Numbered from the stretch's first letter, positions 5,560 through 38,192 are shown. The stretch is DNA of 64,000 nt from Clostridia bacterium (GCA_045536565.1 JAZSNU010000020.1:2727-66726), one strand, 5' to 3'. Notes: generated from the letters alone by a model not told the origin. Program-made: numbers and translations.

Positions 5560-6627
5560 TTACAAATCTAAAACTTTTGAAGGATCAATTTTAACACTAT
5601 CTATAACCACTTCAAAATGAAGATGTGGTCCCGTTGCATATCCTGTTTCTCCCATATACCCTAGTAAATCTCCTGCTTTTACCTCAGTTCCTTGTTTTAT
5701 ACTCACACTATCCATATGTGCATATTTTGTTATCAATCTACCGTTTGTTATTTCTACAAAATTTCCATTATATTTATTATTTGCTACTTTTGTTACAGTA
5801 CCAGCCGTACTTGCTACTATATTAGTACCCTTTCTATTTGCTATATCTACACCTGTGTGATATGAATCTATATCCTCAAATATAACTTCCCTTGCCCCAA
5901 AGCTAGAAGATACTGTTCCATTTGTTGGCATTACAAACTCAATATTATTATCATATATATACTGTAAATATGGATCTTCACTACTTATTGTACTTACTGC
6001 TGTTTCGTATTCTATTTTTTCTTCTTCTGCCTCTATTTTATCACTTACAATATTCTCATCTATACTTACTCCTACCCCATCATTTTCAATTTCATTACTA
6101 CTTTCTTCTTTGTTTTCTTCCTCAGCATAAATAGTTACTTGGTTTTTATCATTTTTATTATCCTCTGTTAATGCTTTTTTTACATCTAAATACATTGATT
6201 TAACTTTGTTTTCTACTTCATCTGGAACAATTTTAATTAAGCCCAAGTAACAATATTTTACACCTTTCTTTGCGCCTTTTTTTATTTTATTCATAGGGTA
6301 ATCTTTGCTATATTCTTTTTTTATCATTTTTACATATTTGTTATTATCAATCAAATTAATATCAAACATATTAACTGATATTACCACTATTAGCACACAC
6401 ATCGCACTTATAGATTGTATCCATAGTTTCATCTTAATATTAAATATATGTTTTTCTATAAACGATTTATTTACACTTTCCTCTTTGTTTATTTTTCTAC
6501 CTATACTCAAACTTTTTCTACATACATCACTTAAACTATCTTTTCTATTAAAACTTCTATTATATCTGCTATACGAATTTCCAATGCTACTTGACCTAAG
6601 ACATCTTTTTGCAACTATACCTTCCAT
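5560..6627 (-). CDS. M23 (LytM) family peptidase with N-terminal TM segment and acidic linker, SpoIVFA-like by context
   Basis: C-terminal M23 motifs HTGVDIA ... GETGYATGPHLHFEV; acidic low-complexity linker; start moved to ATG (MEG...) because the upstream in-frame GTG lies inside the RBS GAGGTGA; 10 nt upstream of the M50 gene. Confidence 0.7.
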   Translation of the reverse strand: MEGIVAKRCLRSSSIGNSYSRYNRSFNRKDSLSDVCRKSLSIGRKINKEESVNKSFIEKHIFNIKMKLWIQSISAMCVLIVVISVNMFDINLIDNNKYVKMIKKEYSKDYPMNKIKKGAKKGVKYCYLGLIKIVPDEVENKVKSMYLDVKKALTEDNKNDKNQVTIYAEEENKEESSNEIENDGVGVSIDENIVSDKIEAEEEKIEYETAVSTISSEDPYLQYIYDNNIEFVMPTNGTVSSSFGAREVIFEDIDSYHTGVDIANRKGTNIVASTAGTVTKVANNKYNGNFVEITNGRLITKYAHMDSVSIKQGTEVKAGDLLGYMGETGYATGPHLHFEVVIDSVKIDPSKVLDL

Positions 6628-6710
6628 ATGATTCACCTCAAAAAAATAACTTATCCATATACTTTAAATATATTGGATAAGTTTATTTTTATTACACATT
6701 ATTTAATTAA

Positions 6711-8204: not shown

Positions 8205-8867
8205 TTAACTTAATGTTACTGTTACAGTACCTATTGTAGCACCTGGTCTTACATTGCTTAAAGAACCACCTTCAAGCTTTAATACATATGTAATTCCTGT
8301 AATAGAAAGAATATCATCATATGCATACATAGCTGGTATCTCACCTGAAGAAGGATATGGTGCTCCACCTGCTGCATACCATTCATAGTATTTATCTGCT
8401 TCAAATACAGTATTTTCAGAGATCTCAACAAGTATTCCGTTTTCATTTAATTCAAAATATGTTCCTGTGCTAAAATCCTCTGGTTCTTCGGATAATAATT
8501 TATATTCTCCTCCCCATAGACCACTTCTAGAATCATCCATAACTCCAATAACTGTTGGTATTGCAGAAGTAAAATTAACATCTGCTTTTACTATAACATT
8601 AGATTTATTAGTTATTGTTATATAATCGGCCATCTCAGATTCTGGTTCCCAATCATAATATTCATTACCATGCTCATCTTCAACTTTGACAAAATCATAT
8701 ACTAAACTTCCCCACTCAATATCAATATCATAGTTAACATCAGTATCGTCAACTATACCAACCTTAACTATTGAACTAGATGTTCCAAGTCCTGTTGCAA
8801 AAACAGATGGAAGAGCAATAGTAGCAACTAATAACATACAAACTACTAATTTTATACTTCTTTTCAT
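8205..8867 (-). CDS. secreted small protein, family member 3 (tandem duplicate)
   Basis: Signal peptide MKRSIKLVVCMLLVATIALPSVFA; family motif Y[DN][IV][DE]I.WGSLVY.F and C-terminal RPGATIGTVTVTLS; RBS AAGGAGGTGAAA. Confidence 0.6.
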   Translation of the reverse strand: MKRSIKLVVCMLLVATIALPSVFATGLGTSSSIVKVGIVDDTDVNYDIDIEWGSLVYDFVKVEDEHGNEYYDWEPESEMADYITITNKSNVIVKADVNFTSAIPTVIGVMDDSRSGLWGGEYKLLSEEPEDFSTGTYFELNENGILVEISENTVFEADKYYEWYAAGGAPYPSSGEIPAMYAYDDILSITGITYVLKLEGGSLSNVRPGATIGTVTVTLS

Positions 8868-8955
8868 TTATTTCACCTCCTTTTTCATAAATTTATATAT
8901 AATATTAAACTATCTATTTTTAATAAGATTATTAGATTGATATTTATAATCCAAA

Positions 8956-9612
8956 TTAGCTTAATGTTACTGTTACGGTACCTATTGTAGCTCCCGGTCT
9001 TACATCAGTTAAAGAACCACCCTCAAGTTTTAATTTCCACATTAAACTTGATACATGTACAACACCATCTAAGTTCGTTGTACATGATGGAATATCCCTG
9101 TTTTCTGATGGTCCTCCACCTGCTCCAATCCATTTGTAATATTTATCCGCTTCAAAAGTCGTATTTTCACCTTTCTCAACAAATCTTCCTTCTTCATCTC
9201 TTACATAATATGTCTCTGTATTGAAATCTTCTGGTTCTTCTGTTAATATTTGATATTCAGATCCAGCTATCCCACAATAATCAGTATCTTCAAATCCGAT
9301 AACATTTGCCATAGAAGATGTAAATTCTACATCTGCATTTATAATTACATTTGAATAATTTGTTATTTCAACTACATCTGCATTTGTTTTTTCAGGTTCC
9401 CAAATATATTCTCCGATACTAGAATCATTTGATTTAACAAAATTATATACTAAACTTCCCCATTTTATATCGACATTGTAATTAACATCAGTATTGTCAA
9501 CTGTACCAACCTTAACTATTTTACTAGATTCTCCAAGACCTGTTGCAAAAACAGTTGGAAGAGCTATAGTAGCAACTAATAACATACAAATTACTAATTT
9601 TATACTTCTTTT
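8956..9612 (-). CDS. secreted small protein, family member 2 (tandem duplicate)
   Basis: Near-identical signal peptide and C-terminus to 8205..8867; start at internal ATG because the longer ORF begins inside the RBS AAAAAGGAGGTGAAA. Confidence 0.6.
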   Translation of the reverse strand, partial: KRSIKLVICMLLVATIALPTVFATGLGESSKIVKVGTVDNTDVNYNVDIKWGSLVYNFVKSNDSSIGEYIWEPEKTNADVVEITNYSNVIINADVEFTSSMANVIGFEDTDYCGIAGSEYQILTEEPEDFNTETYYVRDEEGRFVEKGENTTFEADKYYKWIGAGGGPSENRDIPSCTTNLDGVVHVSSLMWKLKLEGGSLTDVRPGATIGTVTVTLS

Positions 9613-9686
9613 CATTTGTTTCACCTCCTTTTTCATAAACCTCTATATATTAACTTATATTTATTTTTCAGATTAAGATAATACCT

Positions 9687-10220
9687 TTATTTAACTGTTA
9701 TTTTTATTGGAATGTTAGTATTTACAATTGCTTTTTCATCAGTTTCTTCATCATAATACATAATGTTAAACATTCCTTCATACTCACCATTTGAAAGAGT
9801 TATATTTTCTTTTAAATCAAGTTCGTATATAGCATAACTTGGTGGTATTCTATTTGATTCTGCTATTACAACATCATTATCATTTTGTTTTATAATTACT
9901 TGTAATACCATACTTTGAGTTGACCTTGATGGATTTTTAAAATTAATAGAAACTTGTCCACTCTTTAAATCAATATCCACCTTGTTCGAATATGATAAAG
10001 AAACTGCTCCTCCACCTTGACTTTTTTCCATTTTATCTCCTGAGTTAGGAAGGAGCACAATATTATCATCTTCTTTCCCTGGTGCATAATCTACATATTT
10101 AGGTTCTTTAAAAAATACTAAATATACTATTATTCCTACGCATGCTAATATTATTAAAAGTAGAAATACTACTAGCTTATTTTTTCTTTCTTGTTTTTCT
10201 GCTCTTCCTTTTCTACTCAT
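9687..10220 (-). CDS. N-terminally membrane-anchored (type II) beta-rich extracellular protein
   Basis: Basic N-tail, one TM helix (LVVFLLLIILACVGIIVYLVFF), then about 140 aa hydrophilic beta-rich domain; start overlaps the upstream stop by 8 nt (translational coupling). Confidence 0.55.
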   Translation of the reverse strand: MSRKGRAEKQERKNKLVVFLLLIILACVGIIVYLVFFKEPKYVDYAPGKEDDNIVLLPNSGDKMEKSQGGGAVSLSYSNKVDIDLKSGQVSINFKNPSRSTQSMVLQVIIKQNDNDVVIAESNRIPPSYAIYELDLKENITLSNGEYEGMFNIMYYDEETDEKAIVNTNIPIKITVK

Positions 10221-10833
10221 TTTCTCTTTCCTTTCTTGTTTTTATTATTGCAAGTAATATAACTAAAATTGTACATAGTAGAATAATAAATATTACAAGT
10301 GGTGCATTATTTGTTTCATCACCTTTTATTATATCTACTAAATCCTCATACACATTAATATCTTCATTATTATCTGTTTTTATTTCTCCAGCTTGTCCTA
10401 TAACTATATAACAATCATTTGTTATCTTTTCTATCTGATTACCATTATTATCATATATTTTTATTATTTTATCCTCATTAGAATATTCTTCTAAACTAAT
10501 TCCAGATAGTATATTTTCTTTATTATCTAATATTTTCAAGTAATATACATTGTCATTTTCATCTATTTCTACCTTTGTTTTTAACCATTCAAGCGATTCA
10601 TTAGAAACTTCAAAAAGCATGATATTTAAATCCTTACTTACATTTTCATTTAATACTATTCTAATTTTGTCATCATTTAAATCATATTCTACTTTATTAT
10701 CAACTATTTCTTTTGTATGCTTACTAGTATTATCAGTATAGTTATATTTTATAACTATATCTTTACTTGTATCTGCATTTACATTTCCTAATAACACAAA
10801 TAACAAACATAAAATTACACCTATTTTCTTCAT
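10213..10833 (-). CDS. secreted protein with signal peptide and C-terminal TM anchor plus basic tail
   Basis: Signal peptide MKKIGVILCLLFVLLGNVNA; C-terminal hydrophobic segment LVIFIILLCTILVILLAII followed by KTRKERENE; sortase-independent anchor topology. Confidence 0.55.
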   Translation of the reverse strand: MKKIGVILCLLFVLLGNVNADTSKDIVIKYNYTDNTSKHTKEIVDNKVEYDLNDDKIRIVLNENVSKDLNIMLFEVSNESLEWLKTKVEIDENDNVYYLKILDNKENILSGISLEEYSNEDKIIKIYDNNGNQIEKITNDCYIVIGQAGEIKTDNNEDINVYEDLVDIIKGDETNNAPLVIFIILLCTILVILLAIIKTRKERENE

Positions 10834-11322
10834 CTATCTATCACCTATTATAATTTTACTATTTAAGCTAACTGTTCCTTTGCTGTAATATGTTTTAGGG
10901 TCATAACTCATTATTTTAATAATAACTTCTTTACTTTGTTTTAAGTTCTCTACTTTTATATTTTCAATTTGTTCACCTGGTTTTATTAAACCTGTTTCAC
11001 TTAATACATTTTCATCTTTTTCATATATTCTTAGCTTTACAAATACATTATTTTCTTCTAAGGATCTAAAATATATTTTTATATTGTTCTCTTCATCTAA
11101 AATTAAATTATTACAAATTCCAACAACATATCCCTCTGCCACATTTATTTCTGCATATTGTAATTTTCCATCTATTTTAGTATCCAATATGTTTATTGCA
11201 TTTTTATCAAATTGCGGCTTTTTAAATTCTTTTTTTGAACTTGTCATAACTGCTATAATTATTGTTAAAATTATTATTAATATTGTTATTACTACTAATA
11301 TAACCATTCCTTTATTTTTCAT
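10834..11322 (-). CDS. N-terminally membrane-anchored small extracellular protein
   Basis: Start set at ATG after RBS AGGTGGA; single N-terminal TM (VILVVITILIIILTIIIAV) then a hydrophilic domain. Confidence 0.5.
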   Translation of the reverse strand: MKNKGMVILVVITILIIILTIIIAVMTSSKKEFKKPQFDKNAINILDTKIDGKLQYAEINVAEGYVVGICNNLILDEENNIKIYFRSLEENNVFVKLRIYEKDENVLSETGLIKPGEQIENIKVENLKQSKEVIIKIMSYDPKTYYSKGTVSLNSKIIIGDR

Positions 11323-11335
11323 ATTTCCACCTATA

Positions 11336-11812
11336 TTACTGCACACTCATAGTTATTCTTCCCACTTTTATATATTCATCTTTGTCAGAAGTTATTGTTC
11401 CTGCCATACTGAAAGTTACTTCTTCTTTACTATTTTTATCTATTTTAACTCTATCTTTATTAAATTTTCCAGTAATACCCATACCTCTTTTAGTTTGTTC
11501 ATATTTAAAACTAATTGTAATTGGTTCATCTGAAAAATTTTTAATATCTATTTTATTATTTTTATTTATCCATTCAGTTTCTGTCACTATATCATATTGT
11601 TTTTCTTTATCATCCCACTTAATATCTTTTGTTTCGTTATATGTAAAGTTCATATTATCCCATGATATTTCAATATCATATACTGATTCTTCTTTATCAT
11701 CTATCCCTTCAACTTCACCTACTGTTACATTTTTAGTAGATGTACAATATGATGTTGAAATACATAATAATATAACTAAGCCTATTAATACTTTTAAATA
11801 TATTTTTTTCAT
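11336..11812 (-). CDS. secreted (possibly lipo-) protein, family member 1, first gene of the cluster
   Basis: Signal peptide MKKIYLKVLIGLVILLCISTSYC (possible lipobox LLC); shares YDIEISWDNMNFTY and C-terminal VGRITMSVQ with the 220/226-aa paralogs; start at ATG after RBS AAGGAAAGAGGAAAT. Confidence 0.55.
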   Translation of the reverse strand: MKKIYLKVLIGLVILLCISTSYCTSTKNVTVGEVEGIDDKEESVYDIEISWDNMNFTYNETKDIKWDDKEKQYDIVTETEWINKNNKIDIKNFSDEPITISFKYEQTKRGMGITGKFNKDRVKIDKNSKEEVTFSMAGTITSDKDEYIKVGRITMSVQ

Positions 11813-11934
11813 ATTTCCTCTTTCCTTCATGCAAAGTATAACACAATAAAACTTTTATTACAATACATTTGTTATGCATAATTATATATTTTATGCATAT
11901 ATAATTATATTAGTAAATGTAATGAGAGGTAATT

Positions 11935-12108
11935 ATGAAAAAATTTAAAATACCATCTATACCACCAACAACAAATAAATGTATTAGATTTCCAAATAAT
12001 ATTATTGAAGAAATAGAACAATGTATAGAAGGAAAAGATTGTACTTTCACAGCATTTGTTGTAGAAGCAGTTAGAGTGGCATTAGAAAATTTAAAAGAGG
12101 AACAGTAA
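11935..12108 (+). CDS. YlcI/YnfO-like (DUF3950-type) small DNA-binding protein, 57 aa
   Basis: Manual translation MKKFKIPSIPPTTNKCIRFPNNIIEEIEQCIEGKDCTFTAFVVEAVRVALENLKEEQ; IRFP..[IV][IV]EEIE...FTAFV.EAV motif of the YlcI/YnfO family; divergent from the secreted-protein cluster; rho-independent terminator overlaps its stop. Confidence 0.5.
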   Translation: MKKFKIPSIPPTTNKCIRFPNNIIEEIEQCIEGKDCTFTAFVVEAVRVALENLKEEQ

Positions 12109-12139
12109 AATTAATTTTTTTACTGTTCCTCTTTTCTTG
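12097..12139 (+). terminator. rho-independent terminator (GAGGAACAGTA ... TACTGTTCCTC + T-run)
   Basis: Perfect 11-bp stem followed by TTTTCTTG. Confidence 0.7.
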
Positions 12140-12193: not shown

Positions 12194-12817
12194 ATGAAAA
12201 AATTATTTATAACTTTAATAGTTTGTATATGTGTAGTTTTAATTGTAACTATTATTACTAGAACAGATTTATTTAATAAAAAAACAACACCTAACATTTC
12301 ACAAAAAAATAATTATGATGTTTCCGAAATGCTTGAAAATATTCTAAACATTTCAAATATTTATGTGGAATATACTGACATGGATAATAAAACTACTTAT
12401 ATTTACAAAAAAGATTATCTAGAAAAAACTGTTTCTAATTATAGTACAAAAATATTCGATACAAAAGATAATATATCTAAAGTTTATAAAACCGATTCAA
12501 AAGAAGGTATTATATCGCCTATCTCTGATTTGAATTATAAAAACTCATATTTTTATTATTGTAATACAATTCTTGATACTCTTAAAAATAATAAATATGA
12601 AATACTTAATGACTCTATAAACGGAAAAGATTGTATAAAAGTTGTATTTAAAGATGAAGATTTTGAAGCTTGGTTTGAAAAAGAAAATAATTTATTAATA
12701 AAAATTTATTCTAATAAAACTAATGGTACTGTAGAATTTAAAAATATAAAAATTAATTCTTTAACTGATGATGATTTTAAAGTTCCTAACGATGTAATCT
12801 TAAAAGAAGTAAAATAA
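12194..12817 (+). CDS. membrane-anchored hypothetical protein (N-terminal TM, Asn/Lys-rich ectodomain)
   Basis: RBS TAGGAGGATATAG; one N-terminal TM helix; no catalytic motif. Confidence 0.55.
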   Translation: MKKLFITLIVCICVVLIVTIITRTDLFNKKTTPNISQKNNYDVSEMLENILNISNIYVEYTDMDNKTTYIYKKDYLEKTVSNYSTKIFDTKDNISKVYKTDSKEGIISPISDLNYKNSYFYYCNTILDTLKNNKYEILNDSINGKDCIKVVFKDEDFEAWFEKENNLLIKIYSNKTNGTVEFKNIKINSLTDDDFKVPNDVILKEVK

Positions 12818-35893: not shown

Positions 35894-36095
35894 AAAGCCT
35901 ATTTTTATATATTTTTAGCGTTTACATAAATATTGACAATGTAATTAAAGTGTGATATACTACTATCGTATAAAAAGTAAAATGGGAAAAGTATAATTGC
36001 TTTTCTAGGAAGATAAATTTGGAAAATAATAATGGTTAGCCATTTTTAATATAGATAATTCAAAAAAATAAAATGAAAAAGGAGGAAAAAAGCGT

Positions 36096-38192
36096 ATGAA
36101 ACGCATACTTTCAATTTTGCTTGCAATCATATTGATATTAACAATATCAACATCTGTATTTGCTAGCTATGACCCTACGGGATATTATAACCCATATAAC
36201 AACAGTTATAATTCCTACAACACATATAGAGGTGATGATTATTCTAACACATCATTTTCTAATTATTATGGAAATCATCGGTTAAGTTCATGGATGTCTG
36301 ATATAGAGGTAGCATATAATTATCCTACATTATATGAAACATTTCAGAGACCTGTTACAAGAGGTGAATTTGAGCTGCTATTTTTAAGAACTGTGCAACA
36401 TTCTCTCGAAAGACAAGGATATTCAAGACTTATGGCTGGATATAATGCGGTACCTTTTAAAGATTACGGTACAGTTAATCCATATGCTCAATCAGAGGTT
36501 AATGTATTATATTCCAATGGTCTTCTTGTTGGATATGAAGATAACACAATGAGATTTAATCAGCCAATAACGAGAGCGGAAGGTGCTACAATTTATTGCA
36601 GATTTAACAACATATTATTTAATATGGGTCCTCAATATAATCAGAATAATTACACCGGATATAATGATTATTATAACAACAATTTTAATAATTATTATAT
36701 CAATTATGCATATTATACTGATATTAATGGCCATTGGGCAGCACAGTATATTATAACAGCATCTGCTAATGGTGTTCTTCGCGGTGTTGGCAATAATTAT
36801 TTTGATACCGAAGGTCAGCTTACAGTTGAACAGGCTTGGAAAATGATTGATTGTTGTGTAGGATATATGGGGCTTACAAGAAGTGATATTGCTCACGGCA
36901 TGGAAAAAACTTTCAAGATTAAATTTAAAGATATTGACGATGATTACTATGTAGATTCTGTAAATGGTATTAAAATAACAAGGCTTTCAACATCAACAAC
37001 TTCTATTTCTATGAATGTTGGTGAAACAAGAAATATCAAAGTTTCTATTTATCCAACAAATGCAACATATCAGAAGATGAGTTGGAGTTCATCAAACACA
37101 TCGGCTGTAAGTGTAGAAGAAACTTGGAATCCAGCTAAGGGTACAGCAAATGTTGCAATTCGTGCAAGAAAAGCAGTATCGGGATATGTTAATCTAACTG
37201 GTCGTGTACTTGATGGTTCAGGTAAAACAGTAACTGTACAGGTTAAAGTAAATAATAACTATAACGATGGTTATTACGATGATGGATATATTTCATCAAT
37301 TACAATGTCTGAAAGCGTTATATATTTAAATCCTGGCGAAAGTGTTCAGATTAATGCAAGAATCAGACCAACAGATGCATATAACAAAAATCTTACTTGG
37401 TCATCAAACAATTCTAGTATTGCTCGTGTTACAGACACATACACAAGTGGAAGTAATTCATATGCTACTGTAACAGCAGGAAATATTGGGGAGACATATG
37501 TATATGCAAATGCGAGAGATGGTTCTGGTGTGTCAGGTTATGTAAGAGTAGTGGTTAGAAATAATAATACAGCGCAGACAATAACATCAGCTATTGCAAG
37601 TCCTTCATCGGTAACGCTAAATATTGGTAGTTCTCAGAATTGCTATATAACGGCATATCCAACAAATGCTACTGATAAAGAAATTAACTATATTTCGGAT
37701 AATTCTAATATAGCAAGGGTTGTTAAAAATCCTAATAGCAGTATTCAAATAATTGGTGTTGGAGTAGGAAGTACAACCATACGAGGAATAGCAGTAGCAA
37801 CAGGACAAGAAGTTTGTAGTATACCTGTAACAGTAAATTCACAGTATGTAAATCCTGGTCCAGGGGTAACTGATAATAATCCACCTGTTGTAACACTTGA
37901 AGGAGCAACATCTGTAAATATTGGCGATACTATTACTATTATTGCTAAAGCCCATGATGAAACATCAATATCGTCATTTGTAGTTGGTGTAAATGATATT
38001 ATAGGAATGACTGGTTCACTTAGCCCTGTAAGAATAGATAAAATATCTGATACAGAGTATAGAATCACATTAATGGGTGTAGAAGTTTCATCTCAATGCA
38101 TATGTATAAAATCAGGGGTGGCTACTGATACTGCTGGAAATGTAAGCAGCGAAAGTAACGAAATTGTTGTTTTTGTAAATAGTGGAGAGTAA
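36096..38192 (+). CDS. S-layer-homology (SLH) domain surface protein with Big_2 (Ig-like) repeats
   Basis: Signal peptide, Tyr/Asn-rich low-complexity segments, SLH-like repeats (ITRAEGATI, PVTRGEFELLF), several Big_2-like modules (SSNNSSIARV... etc). Confidence 0.7.
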   Translation: MKRILSILLAIILILTISTSVFASYDPTGYYNPYNNSYNSYNTYRGDDYSNTSFSNYYGNHRLSSWMSDIEVAYNYPTLYETFQRPVTRGEFELLFLRTVQHSLERQGYSRLMAGYNAVPFKDYGTVNPYAQSEVNVLYSNGLLVGYEDNTMRFNQPITRAEGATIYCRFNNILFNMGPQYNQNNYTGYNDYYNNNFNNYYINYAYYTDINGHWAAQYIITASANGVLRGVGNNYFDTEGQLTVEQAWKMIDCCVGYMGLTRSDIAHGMEKTFKIKFKDIDDDYYVDSVNGIKITRLSTSTTSISMNVGETRNIKVSIYPTNATYQKMSWSSSNTSAVSVEETWNPAKGTANVAIRARKAVSGYVNLTGRVLDGSGKTVTVQVKVNNNYNDGYYDDGYISSITMSESVIYLNPGESVQINARIRPTDAYNKNLTWSSNNSSIARVTDTYTSGSNSYATVTAGNIGETYVYANARDGSGVSGYVRVVVRNNNTAQTITSAIASPSSVTLNIGSSQNCYITAYPTNATDKEINYISDNSNIARVVKNPNSSIQIIGVGVGSTTIRGIAVATGQEVCSIPVTVNSQYVNPGPGVTDNNPPVVTLEGATSVNIGDTITIIAKAHDETSISSFVVGVNDIIGMTGSLSPVRIDKISDTEYRITLMGVEVSSQCICIKSGVATDTAGNVSSESNEIVVFVNSGE

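Follow-up and report, generated by a model that had tools for sequence, protein, structure and literature searches.

We analysed a 64,000-nucleotide stretch of DNA from a Clostridia bacterium (GCA_045536565.1, JAZSNU010000020.1:2727-66726), referred to below as the window, in which an earlier note had singled out a cluster of small secreted and membrane-anchored proteins as a candidate cell-surface or appendage assembly system. A scan for open reading frames (ORFs) confirmed the six of the cluster, all co-directional on the minus strand between 8205 and 11812. The packed six-gene cluster described in the note is thus present, with a promoter-like site at one end and a terminator-like site at the other. 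When the upstream sequences were read, three starts (G1, G2 and G5) had to be moved relative to the listed ORFs. The cluster is laid out as follows (coordinates counted from the first letter of the window, protein lengths in amino acids, aa):

11835-11863, minus strand: promoter-like site, TTGTAA, 17 nt, TATACT with a TG extension, from a consensus scan
11336-11812, minus strand: G1, 158 aa from Met7, start at 11812
10834-11322, minus strand: G2, most likely starting at the ATG of MKNKGM (11322)
10213-10833, minus strand: G3
9687-10220, minus strand: G4
8956-9615, minus strand: G5, 219 aa, start at Met8 (9615)
8205-8867, minus strand: G6, 220 aa
8169-8192, minus strand: intrinsic-terminator-like hairpin, a 10-bp stem followed by a T run, 12 nt past the G6 stop

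The sequence directly 5' of G1 Met7 is GGAAAGAGGAAAT, and AAGGAGGTG serves as the G5 ribosome-binding site, 5' of Met8. Read from Met8, G5 is identical to its homologue P0002, with exact agreement of the start. For G2, a GTG at 11346 is an alternative start. The junctions are tight from G1 to G4: 13 nt separate G1 from G2 (or an 11-nt overlap joins them if the GTG is used), there is no gap between G2 and G3, G3 and G4 overlap by 8 nt, and gaps of 50 nt and 88 nt follow between G4 and G5 and between G5 and G6. The promoter-like site lies directly upstream of the G1 ribosome-binding site; its call is a pattern match alone, at 9/12, in AT-rich DNA. Terminator-like sites number 3 in the region, where 0.5 were expected. 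Because of the tight junctions, the promoter-like site upstream and the terminator-like hairpin after G6, the six genes look like one transcription unit.

All six genes are under purifying selection when compared with their orthologues in loci L004 and L005. The ratio of nonsynonymous to synonymous substitution rates (omega) is 0.17-0.42 for G1 to G4 (0.35-0.42 for G1, 0.17-0.22 for G4) and 0.09-0.8 for G5/G6. Between lineages the G5/G6-type subunit evolves much faster, with 42-62% protein identity and an omega of 0.6-0.8, compared with identities of 80-86% for G4 and 97% for EF-P. The earlier note could name no family for these proteins, and neither could we: the six have no match in Pfam, NCBIfam, PHROGs, PADLOC or the sequences of the PDB, and Foldseek against the PDB returned nothing below E 0.001. 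A match of G4 to MAG1140 (E 2e-4) was below the cutoff and covers the tail, transmembrane helix and linker. The NCBIfam models ExtJ and JUQZ-1, encountered among family members, were set aside as they scored below their curated cutoffs and covered essentially the signal-peptide region alone. A phage or defence origin was tested and rejected.

G1, G5 and G6 belong to a single family of secreted beta-sandwich proteins. The two shared motifs reported for them occur exactly as given: YDIEISWDNMNFTY, YNVDIKWGSLVYNF and YDIDIEWGSLVYDF match Y[DN][IV][DE]I.W[GD][SN][LM].[FY].[FY], and GRITMSVQ and GTVTVTLS match the C-terminal motif. G5 and G6 are 61.5% identical. The comparison of the G1 family with the G5/G6 family by hhalign gave a probability of 95% and an E of 2.6e-8, a sequence kinship beyond chance. 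G1 represents the minimal form of the family, with a signal peptide, an N-terminal strand TSTKNVTVGEVEG, a core beginning at VYDIEISWDNMNFTY and a C-terminal strand KVGRITMSVQ, and it resembles the typical members, of about 175 aa, of the wider subunit family. Common to G1 and G5/G6 are the N-terminal strand, the core start VY.[VI].I.W, an I.I.N.S strand and a C-terminal G..T[VM].[VL] strand; G5/G6 have in addition a variable insertion in the centre, about 70 aa long, which G1 lacks.

The AlphaFold model of G6 is all-beta, with a predicted local distance difference test (pLDDT) score of 81 overall and mostly near or above 90 in the core. A helix at residues 2-24 corresponds to the signal peptide, in agreement with the topology proposed earlier, and residues 19-41 fall below pLDDT 50 and are disordered in the monomer model. 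In the conservation profile of G5/G6 the mature N-terminal segment (residues 25-41) ranks at the top with 0.90-0.93, followed by the C-terminal strands with 0.84-0.87, while the centre drops to 0.27-0.6. The most conserved segment of G5/G6 is therefore the very one that the AlphaFold monomer leaves unstructured.

The second subunit gene of the window has a history of its own. G6 (8205-8867) shares 98% DNA identity with the one subunit gene in L004 (10001-10663 of that locus, from the metagenome-assembled genome (MAG) contig JAZSQI010000047), with a synonymous divergence (dS) of 0.06. In the flanks the window and L004 share about 80-84% DNA identity, with a dS of 0.51 for G4 and 0.92 for miaB, and G5 and G6 differ from each other by a dS of 0.52. 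Since G6 is nearly identical to the L004 copy and the flanks are far less so, the second copy looks like a recently exchanged allele rather than an old in-place duplication.

The remaining three proteins are anchored in the membrane. G4, the most conserved component of the module, was modelled with a pLDDT of 80: a basic cytoplasmic tail precedes a transmembrane helix (10-37), which is followed by a linker (about 40 residues) and then by a seven-stranded immunoglobulin (Ig)/macroglobulin-like sandwich (76-176). Two sequences, GGGAVSLxY just before the domain and FxNPSxSxQ, are held invariant even at 36% overall identity. G2 is anchored by an N-terminal transmembrane segment, and its beta-rich ectodomain has the conserved motifs F.KP.FD and GETGLIKPGE. 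The G2 and G4 families align over 143 columns with an hhalign probability of 97% and an E of 5e-11, and on this sequence evidence the two are paralogues, each crossing the membrane once and bearing its Ig-like ectodomain on a flexible linker; profile comparison detected no homology between G4 and the subunit family. G3 begins with a signal peptide and an N-terminal strand like that of the subunits (KDIVIKYNY); an acidic region rich in beta structure comes next, and the protein ends in a C-terminal transmembrane helix with a basic tail. The anchor helix of G4 in the AlphaFold model, and the C-terminal hydrophobic stretch of G3 followed by KTRKERENE, bear out the anchor types assigned in the earlier note. 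A search by hhalign detected no relative of G3 among the other five proteins. G3 is also missing from L003 and from most of the more distant loci. Homologues of G3 in other loci have (S/P)PxTG (SPxTG-type) sortase signals, a type assigned by comparison with Clostridioides difficile sortase substrates, while the G3 of the window has the helix and tail alone. We regard G3 as a candidate base anchor. One strand pattern, x-V-x-[AL]-x-Y, is common to the N-termini of the subunits (DVKATY), to G4 and, directly after the signal peptide, to G3 (KDIVIKYNY; AEIEVRARY in L035).

The window cluster is a rearranged form, particular to its lineage, of a Firmicutes surface module that is widespread and unannotated, and it carries a second G5/G6-type gene. 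Word-indexed searches returned 12 close relatives for G6, 15 for G1 and 28 for G4, with one GTDB species representative among them, an uncultured Clostridia MAG. In this lineage efp and miaB flank the order G1-G2-G3-G4-subunit; all the close relatives that were examined have just one G5/G6-type gene, and among the loci examined the second copy occurs in the window alone. The wider family is far larger. An exhaustive profile search (E<=0.001) found at least 1,278 representative subunit proteins (50% identity clusters), mostly of 150-190 aa, which share a layout: the signal peptide is followed by a strand (DVKATY, for example), a linker rich in Gly/Ser, VYSVDI.WG.M.FTY and, at the C-terminus, IGTVTVT[IL]. 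In the 38 members that were scanned, neither Pfam nor NCBIfam covers the subunit core; three longer ones are fused to LRR_5 (BspA) leucine-rich repeats (LRR) and one to CBM26.

A metagenome scan with the G4 profile detected at least 163 relatives, many from human gut assemblies. We kept 80 loci of these 163, mapped local hidden Markov models (HMMs) of the four families on all 95 loci, and counted as complete those with 3 kb or more to each side of G4, 37 in number. The canonical order, always co-directional, is a large secreted protein, G4, one or two small subunits, G2 and occasionally a G3-like gene. The large protein is adhesin-like, spans 200-2,600 aa and bears the family domain at its extreme C-terminus. 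Subunit genes lie beside G4 and on its strand in 37/37 complete loci, G2 is found in 25/37 and is usually the last gene of the module, a large family protein in 23/37, and a G3-like gene in 8/37. The conserved core of the module is formed by the subunit(s), G4 and G2, with G3 as an accessory. The set of six genes is particular to the lineage of the window. Related loci range from 26 to 64% in GC content, and among the named carriers are a Bacilli MAG and a Lachnospiraceae MAG, in which the proteins are annotated as hypothetical. Neither a sortase nor an ATPase nor a peptidase recurs in the module neighbourhoods. A check of gene-neighbourhood conservation had been proposed at the outset; it found the module co-directional in about 90 loci, and this result, together with the adhesin C-terminal domains and the sorting signals of the G3 homologues, supports the reading of the cluster as a surface or appendage assembly system.

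Two features of the large proteins and subunits should be mentioned here. The N-terminal strand and the Gly/Ser linker are kept in nearly all small subunits. For about two-thirds of the large proteins listed, counting distinct ones, the match to the HMM begins past the N-terminal strand, at positions 40-48. What recurs beside the module are more giant LRR proteins, or proteins whose ends are dockerin-like. Giant secreted proteins ending in dockerin-like repeats lie beside the module in L061 (289-6798), L070 (1280-6973) and L082 (5452-7047), which hints at a link to surface assemblies of the cohesin-dockerin type in some lineages. L009 (641-14594, Lachnospiraceae MAG) has an expanded variant of the module: small subunits in six or more paralogous copies, a single G4, a protein of 1,941 aa that has the family domain at its end, and another of 455 aa; G2 was undetected there.

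The system that the module resembles most closely in its list of parts is the WxL/Csc cluster. Csc clusters of Lactobacillales and Bacillales encode CscB (the small WxL protein), CscC (the large WxL protein), CscA (the WxL-interacting protein WxLIP, DUF916-DUF3324-TM) and CscD (an LPxTG protein). WxL clusters combine a small WxL protein, another that is large and has the WxL domain at its C-terminus, an Ig-like WxLIP anchored in the membrane and, in many cases, an LPxTG protein, and in AlphaFold predictions an unstructured loop of WxLIP becomes a strand that completes the WxL sandwich beside its N-terminal strand (PMC10599100, PMC9772566). The part list of the module maps one-to-one onto these four. 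A small secreted protein consists of the shared domain alone; a large adhesin-like protein carries it at the C-terminus (in 23/37 complete loci, the window having the small proteins alone); there are Ig-like membrane-anchored partners and, in loci other than the window, a small protein with a sortase signal, as is often the case in WxL/Csc. In both systems the shared domain has an N-terminal strand on an unstructured linker, completion of the sandwich by a strand of the partner is predicted for WxL and may be surmised for the module, and both occur in commensal gut Firmicutes.

Kinship at the family level is another matter. The earlier note had remarked on a loose resemblance to WxL/csc clusters, and this holds for the part list, not for family membership. 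No match to WxL (PF13731) was found by Pfam hmmscan at E<=1 on G1, G5 and G6, or at E<=0.01 on 38 family members; no profile match to DUF916 or DUF3324 was obtained either, and we found no partner built like WxLIP, that is of DUF916, DUF3324 and a C-terminal helix. The suggestion that TVTVTLS is a WxL terminus with Val in place of Trp finds no support, as there is no WxL profile match and the dual Trp-x-Leu motif is absent: G1 and G6 have no W-x-L, and the lone WKL of G5 is incidental. In the module about 25 residues separate the conserved Trp strand from the mature N-terminus, compared to about 110 in small WxL proteins, and the module has two paralogous partners with an N-terminal helix where WxL has one partner with a C-terminal helix. 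The module is found in Clostridia, whereas the published WxL/WxLIP survey has no Clostridia, Lachnospiraceae or Ruminococcaceae among its taxa (PMC10599100, PMC9772566). The WxL model centres on non-covalent binding of the shared domain to peptidoglycan. Given the missing profile matches and the differences in layout, we filed the module as working like WxL/Csc and not as a member of the family. It is new at the family level, with three families that have no curated model or solved structure, and in kind it resembles the surface-complex clusters of Gram-positive bacteria.

In our reading, the module may assemble a non-covalent complex at the cell surface that displays adhesins, as a functional counterpart of WxL/Csc clusters. 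We consider this the leading interpretation and hold it tentatively, at somewhat short of an even chance. The subunit domains would be exported by Sec; G4/G2 would capture them at the membrane and G3 would tether them, with G3 acting as the base anchor and G4/G2 holding or handing over the subunit domains at the membrane. Capture would proceed by beta-strand complementation, a conserved edge strand completing the sandwich of a neighbouring subunit. Complementation is suggested by the fact that the most conserved segment of G5/G6 is disordered in the AlphaFold monomer, and candidate complementing strands are GGGAVSLxY in G4, KDIVIKYNY in G3 and the disordered, conserved mature N-terminus of the subunits. 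The resulting scaffold would expose the variable insert and, in other species, the large adhesins. The window holds no further subunit-family member and no large family protein over its 64 kb; with no large adhesin, the exposed surface here would therefore be G5/G6 themselves. The high omega of the subunits (0.6-0.8) next to the low one of G4 (0.17-0.22), and the conserved termini around a variable centre, are points in favour of a displayed complex of this type. So are the conservation of the module, the place of the family domain at the extreme C-terminus of the large proteins, its fusions to LRR_5/BspA and CBM26, the sortase signals of G3 homologues, the paralogous partners G2 and G4, and the precedent of the WxL clusters. 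Several observations weigh against it. Strand complementation is inferred from conservation and from disorder in monomer models made with shallow alignments; a polymeric fibre fits the same evidence about as well; no homology to WxL, DUF916 or DUF3324 was detectable at the thresholds tried; the anchors of G2 and G4 are N-terminal while that of WxLIP is C-terminal; and G2 was undetected in 12/37 complete loci.

This fibre, the main rival reading, would be a sortase-independent pilus built by donor-strand exchange, in which the N-terminal strand of each subunit completes the sandwich of the next. G5/G6 would be the major subunits and G1 a minor subunit or initiator, the large proteins with the C-terminal domain in other species would be tip adhesins, G3 would donate its N-terminal strand to the last subunit and so anchor the fibre to the membrane or wall, and G2/G4 would be membrane-tethered, chaperone-like placeholders. 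The N-terminal strand with its Gly/Ser linker, present in nearly all small subunits and at the same time the most conserved and least ordered segment of G5/G6, speaks for such exchange, and a match that starts past this strand in about two-thirds of the large proteins listed is expected of a strand-accepting tip. The same idea draws support from the several paralogous subunits per locus (at least six in L009), from conserved termini around a variable centre, as in pilins and flagellins, and from the x-V-x-[AL]-x-Y pattern shared by G3 and G4. Donor-strand fibres assembled without a chaperone are also known, from TasA and from the threads, bundling pili and cannulae of archaea. We nevertheless consider the pilus somewhat unlikely, for the typical locus has one or two small subunits, a stoichiometry close to that of WxL, and in P0097, P0103, P0130 and P0188 extra domains follow the subunit domain, which makes a linear fibre less easy. 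In general terms the module is like donor-strand pili in that the subunits are Ig-like and have a conserved extension at the N-terminus, the adhesin has the subunit domain at its C-terminus, an operon holds several subunit paralogues, the accessory proteins are Ig-like and there is no ATPase. In its boldest form, the module would be the Gram-positive counterpart of chaperone-usher pili, independent of sortase and ATP, with giant LRR adhesins at the tip, G4/G2 as a chaperone-platform acting through GGGAVSLxY and a terminator-anchor of the G3 type; this we judge unlikely. The accessory proteins of the module are membrane-tethered, unlike those of the donor-strand pili (type 1/P, TasA, archaeal), there is no Pfam match to PapD-like or usher families, and the combination of chaperone and outer-membrane usher was not found. 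As regards TasA, no match to TasA/camelysin (Peptidase_M73) was obtained and no dedicated signal peptidase is conserved; an S26 peptidase beside L003 had raised the idea of a SipW/TasA pair, which was dropped as the enzyme is LepB-type and not conserved, and no TasA fold was found. Sortase pili share with the module an operon of a large adhesin and small subunits and, in some lineages, a sorting signal on the base protein. G1, G5 and G6 have no LPXTG or pilin motif and end in GRITMSVQ or GTVTVTLS, a conserved beta-strand, and a TLxTC scan found no sortase-like ORF in the window. Type IV pili and Com pseudopili were rejected: G2 and G4 have no prepilin leader (G|FTLxE), and no ATPase or peptidase occurs in any module; a ComGE match (E 0.09) was below the cutoff. 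The TANB77 'pilin' cluster is of type IV with an ATPase and was rejected on that account.

The rest of the probability, a sizeable minority share, we leave to other or unknown roles beside the WxL-like complex and the donor-strand fibre. One of them is the capture of polysaccharides or other nutrients in place of adhesion to hosts or cells, by the same assembly but with substrate-binding modules as the payload. Such a role was reportedly the original proposal of Siezen et al. for csc clusters, and CBM26 on one family member and the dockerin-like repeats that end some neighbouring giant proteins speak for it. We find it quite improbable all the same, considering that no glycoside hydrolase or sugar transporter recurs beside the module, that BspA-type LRR proteins are the commonest payloads and that the cluster in the window lacks any binding module. 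Proteins of the envelope or spore, with a structural role tied to sporulation or division, were brought to mind by the adjoining spoIVFA/spoIVFB-like genes, ftsA, ftsZ and spoIIGA, and by the origin-proximal block efp, module, miaB, M23, M50, ftsAZ and Peptidase_U4 of the window lineage. This context is not conserved: L003 places the module between metG and lepB/holB, and the neighbourhoods of L001, L009, L012, L013 and the metagenome loci are unrelated to it. Since the module lies elsewhere in unrelated contexts, a sporulation role is very improbable. All its components have Sec signals or transmembrane anchors, which Ena and F-ENA subunits do not. Endospore appendages of these two kinds were also rejected directly, as there was no match to DUF3992 or DUF4183 and all subunits here have Sec signal peptides; F-ENA fibres consist of DUF4183 subunits without signal peptides (PMC12357932). 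Finally, the genes might be small hypothetical ORFs that are unrelated and neighbours by chance, or non-functional genes; AT-rich DNA yields many ORFs and these are annotated nowhere, which would speak for it. With order and strand conserved in about 90 loci over a wide GC range, purifying selection on the genes, confident AlphaFold folds and motifs invariant across the family, the likelihood of this is negligible.

How Clostridia and other gut Firmicutes without S-layer (SLH), CWB2 or WxL systems hold giant adhesins on the cell surface is poorly understood, and the module is a widespread candidate, with a small list of parts that are all annotated as hypothetical. If strand complementation proves true, it would represent a new principle of anchoring or fibre assembly in monoderm bacteria and would provide a function for three new families: the subunit domain, the G2/G4 family and the G3 family. 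G5/G6, as a major subunit that is hypervariable and recently exchanged, suggest a structure that is a likely target of phage or immune selection.

The surroundings of the cluster are as the earlier note described them, with miaB downstream and a small divergent gene upstream:

11935-12108, plus strand: YlcI/YnfO-family gene, 57 aa (NF041551, E 8e-9; phrog_949, E 9e-10)

The note had called this gene a mini-regulator. It is not present in L005-L008 and is therefore not a conserved part of the module; L004 may hold a copy, as the DNA alignment to that locus spans its region. A perfect 9-nt inverted repeat, TATGCATAA/TTATGCATA, with arms 9 nt apart, is situated at 11873-11899 between the operon promoter and the 57-aa gene, and may be an operator. 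On the other side of the 57-aa gene, a hairpin with an 18-bp stem and flanking T runs on both strands (12093-12135) forms a bidirectional terminator-like site, which separates it from the gene of a 207-aa membrane-anchored protein (12194-12817, plus strand) with no family match. Rfam returned no RNA family in the region. Further away, a 706-aa ORF (36072-38192, plus strand) has an N-terminal segment resembling a signal peptide and is unrelated to the module by HMM.

Downstream of the cluster, a near-consensus promoter for miaB (TTGACA, 17 nt, TAAAAT, with TG) was found at 8156-8128. The listed start of the miaB ORF (8192) overlaps the G6 terminator hairpin, and with the promoter at 8156-8128 the true start must therefore be farther downstream. 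Beyond miaB lie genes for M23 (SpoIVFA-like) and M50 (SpoIVFB-like) peptidases, ftsA, ftsZ and Peptidase_U4 (SpoIIGA), and in the relatives infC-rpmI-rplT-efp and dnaA-dnaN-recF-gyrB are found upstream (window 5560-6636, minus strand; L005 14440-20483). The context is an origin-proximal core region of a spore-forming, uncultured Clostridia lineage with a very low GC content (about 25%).

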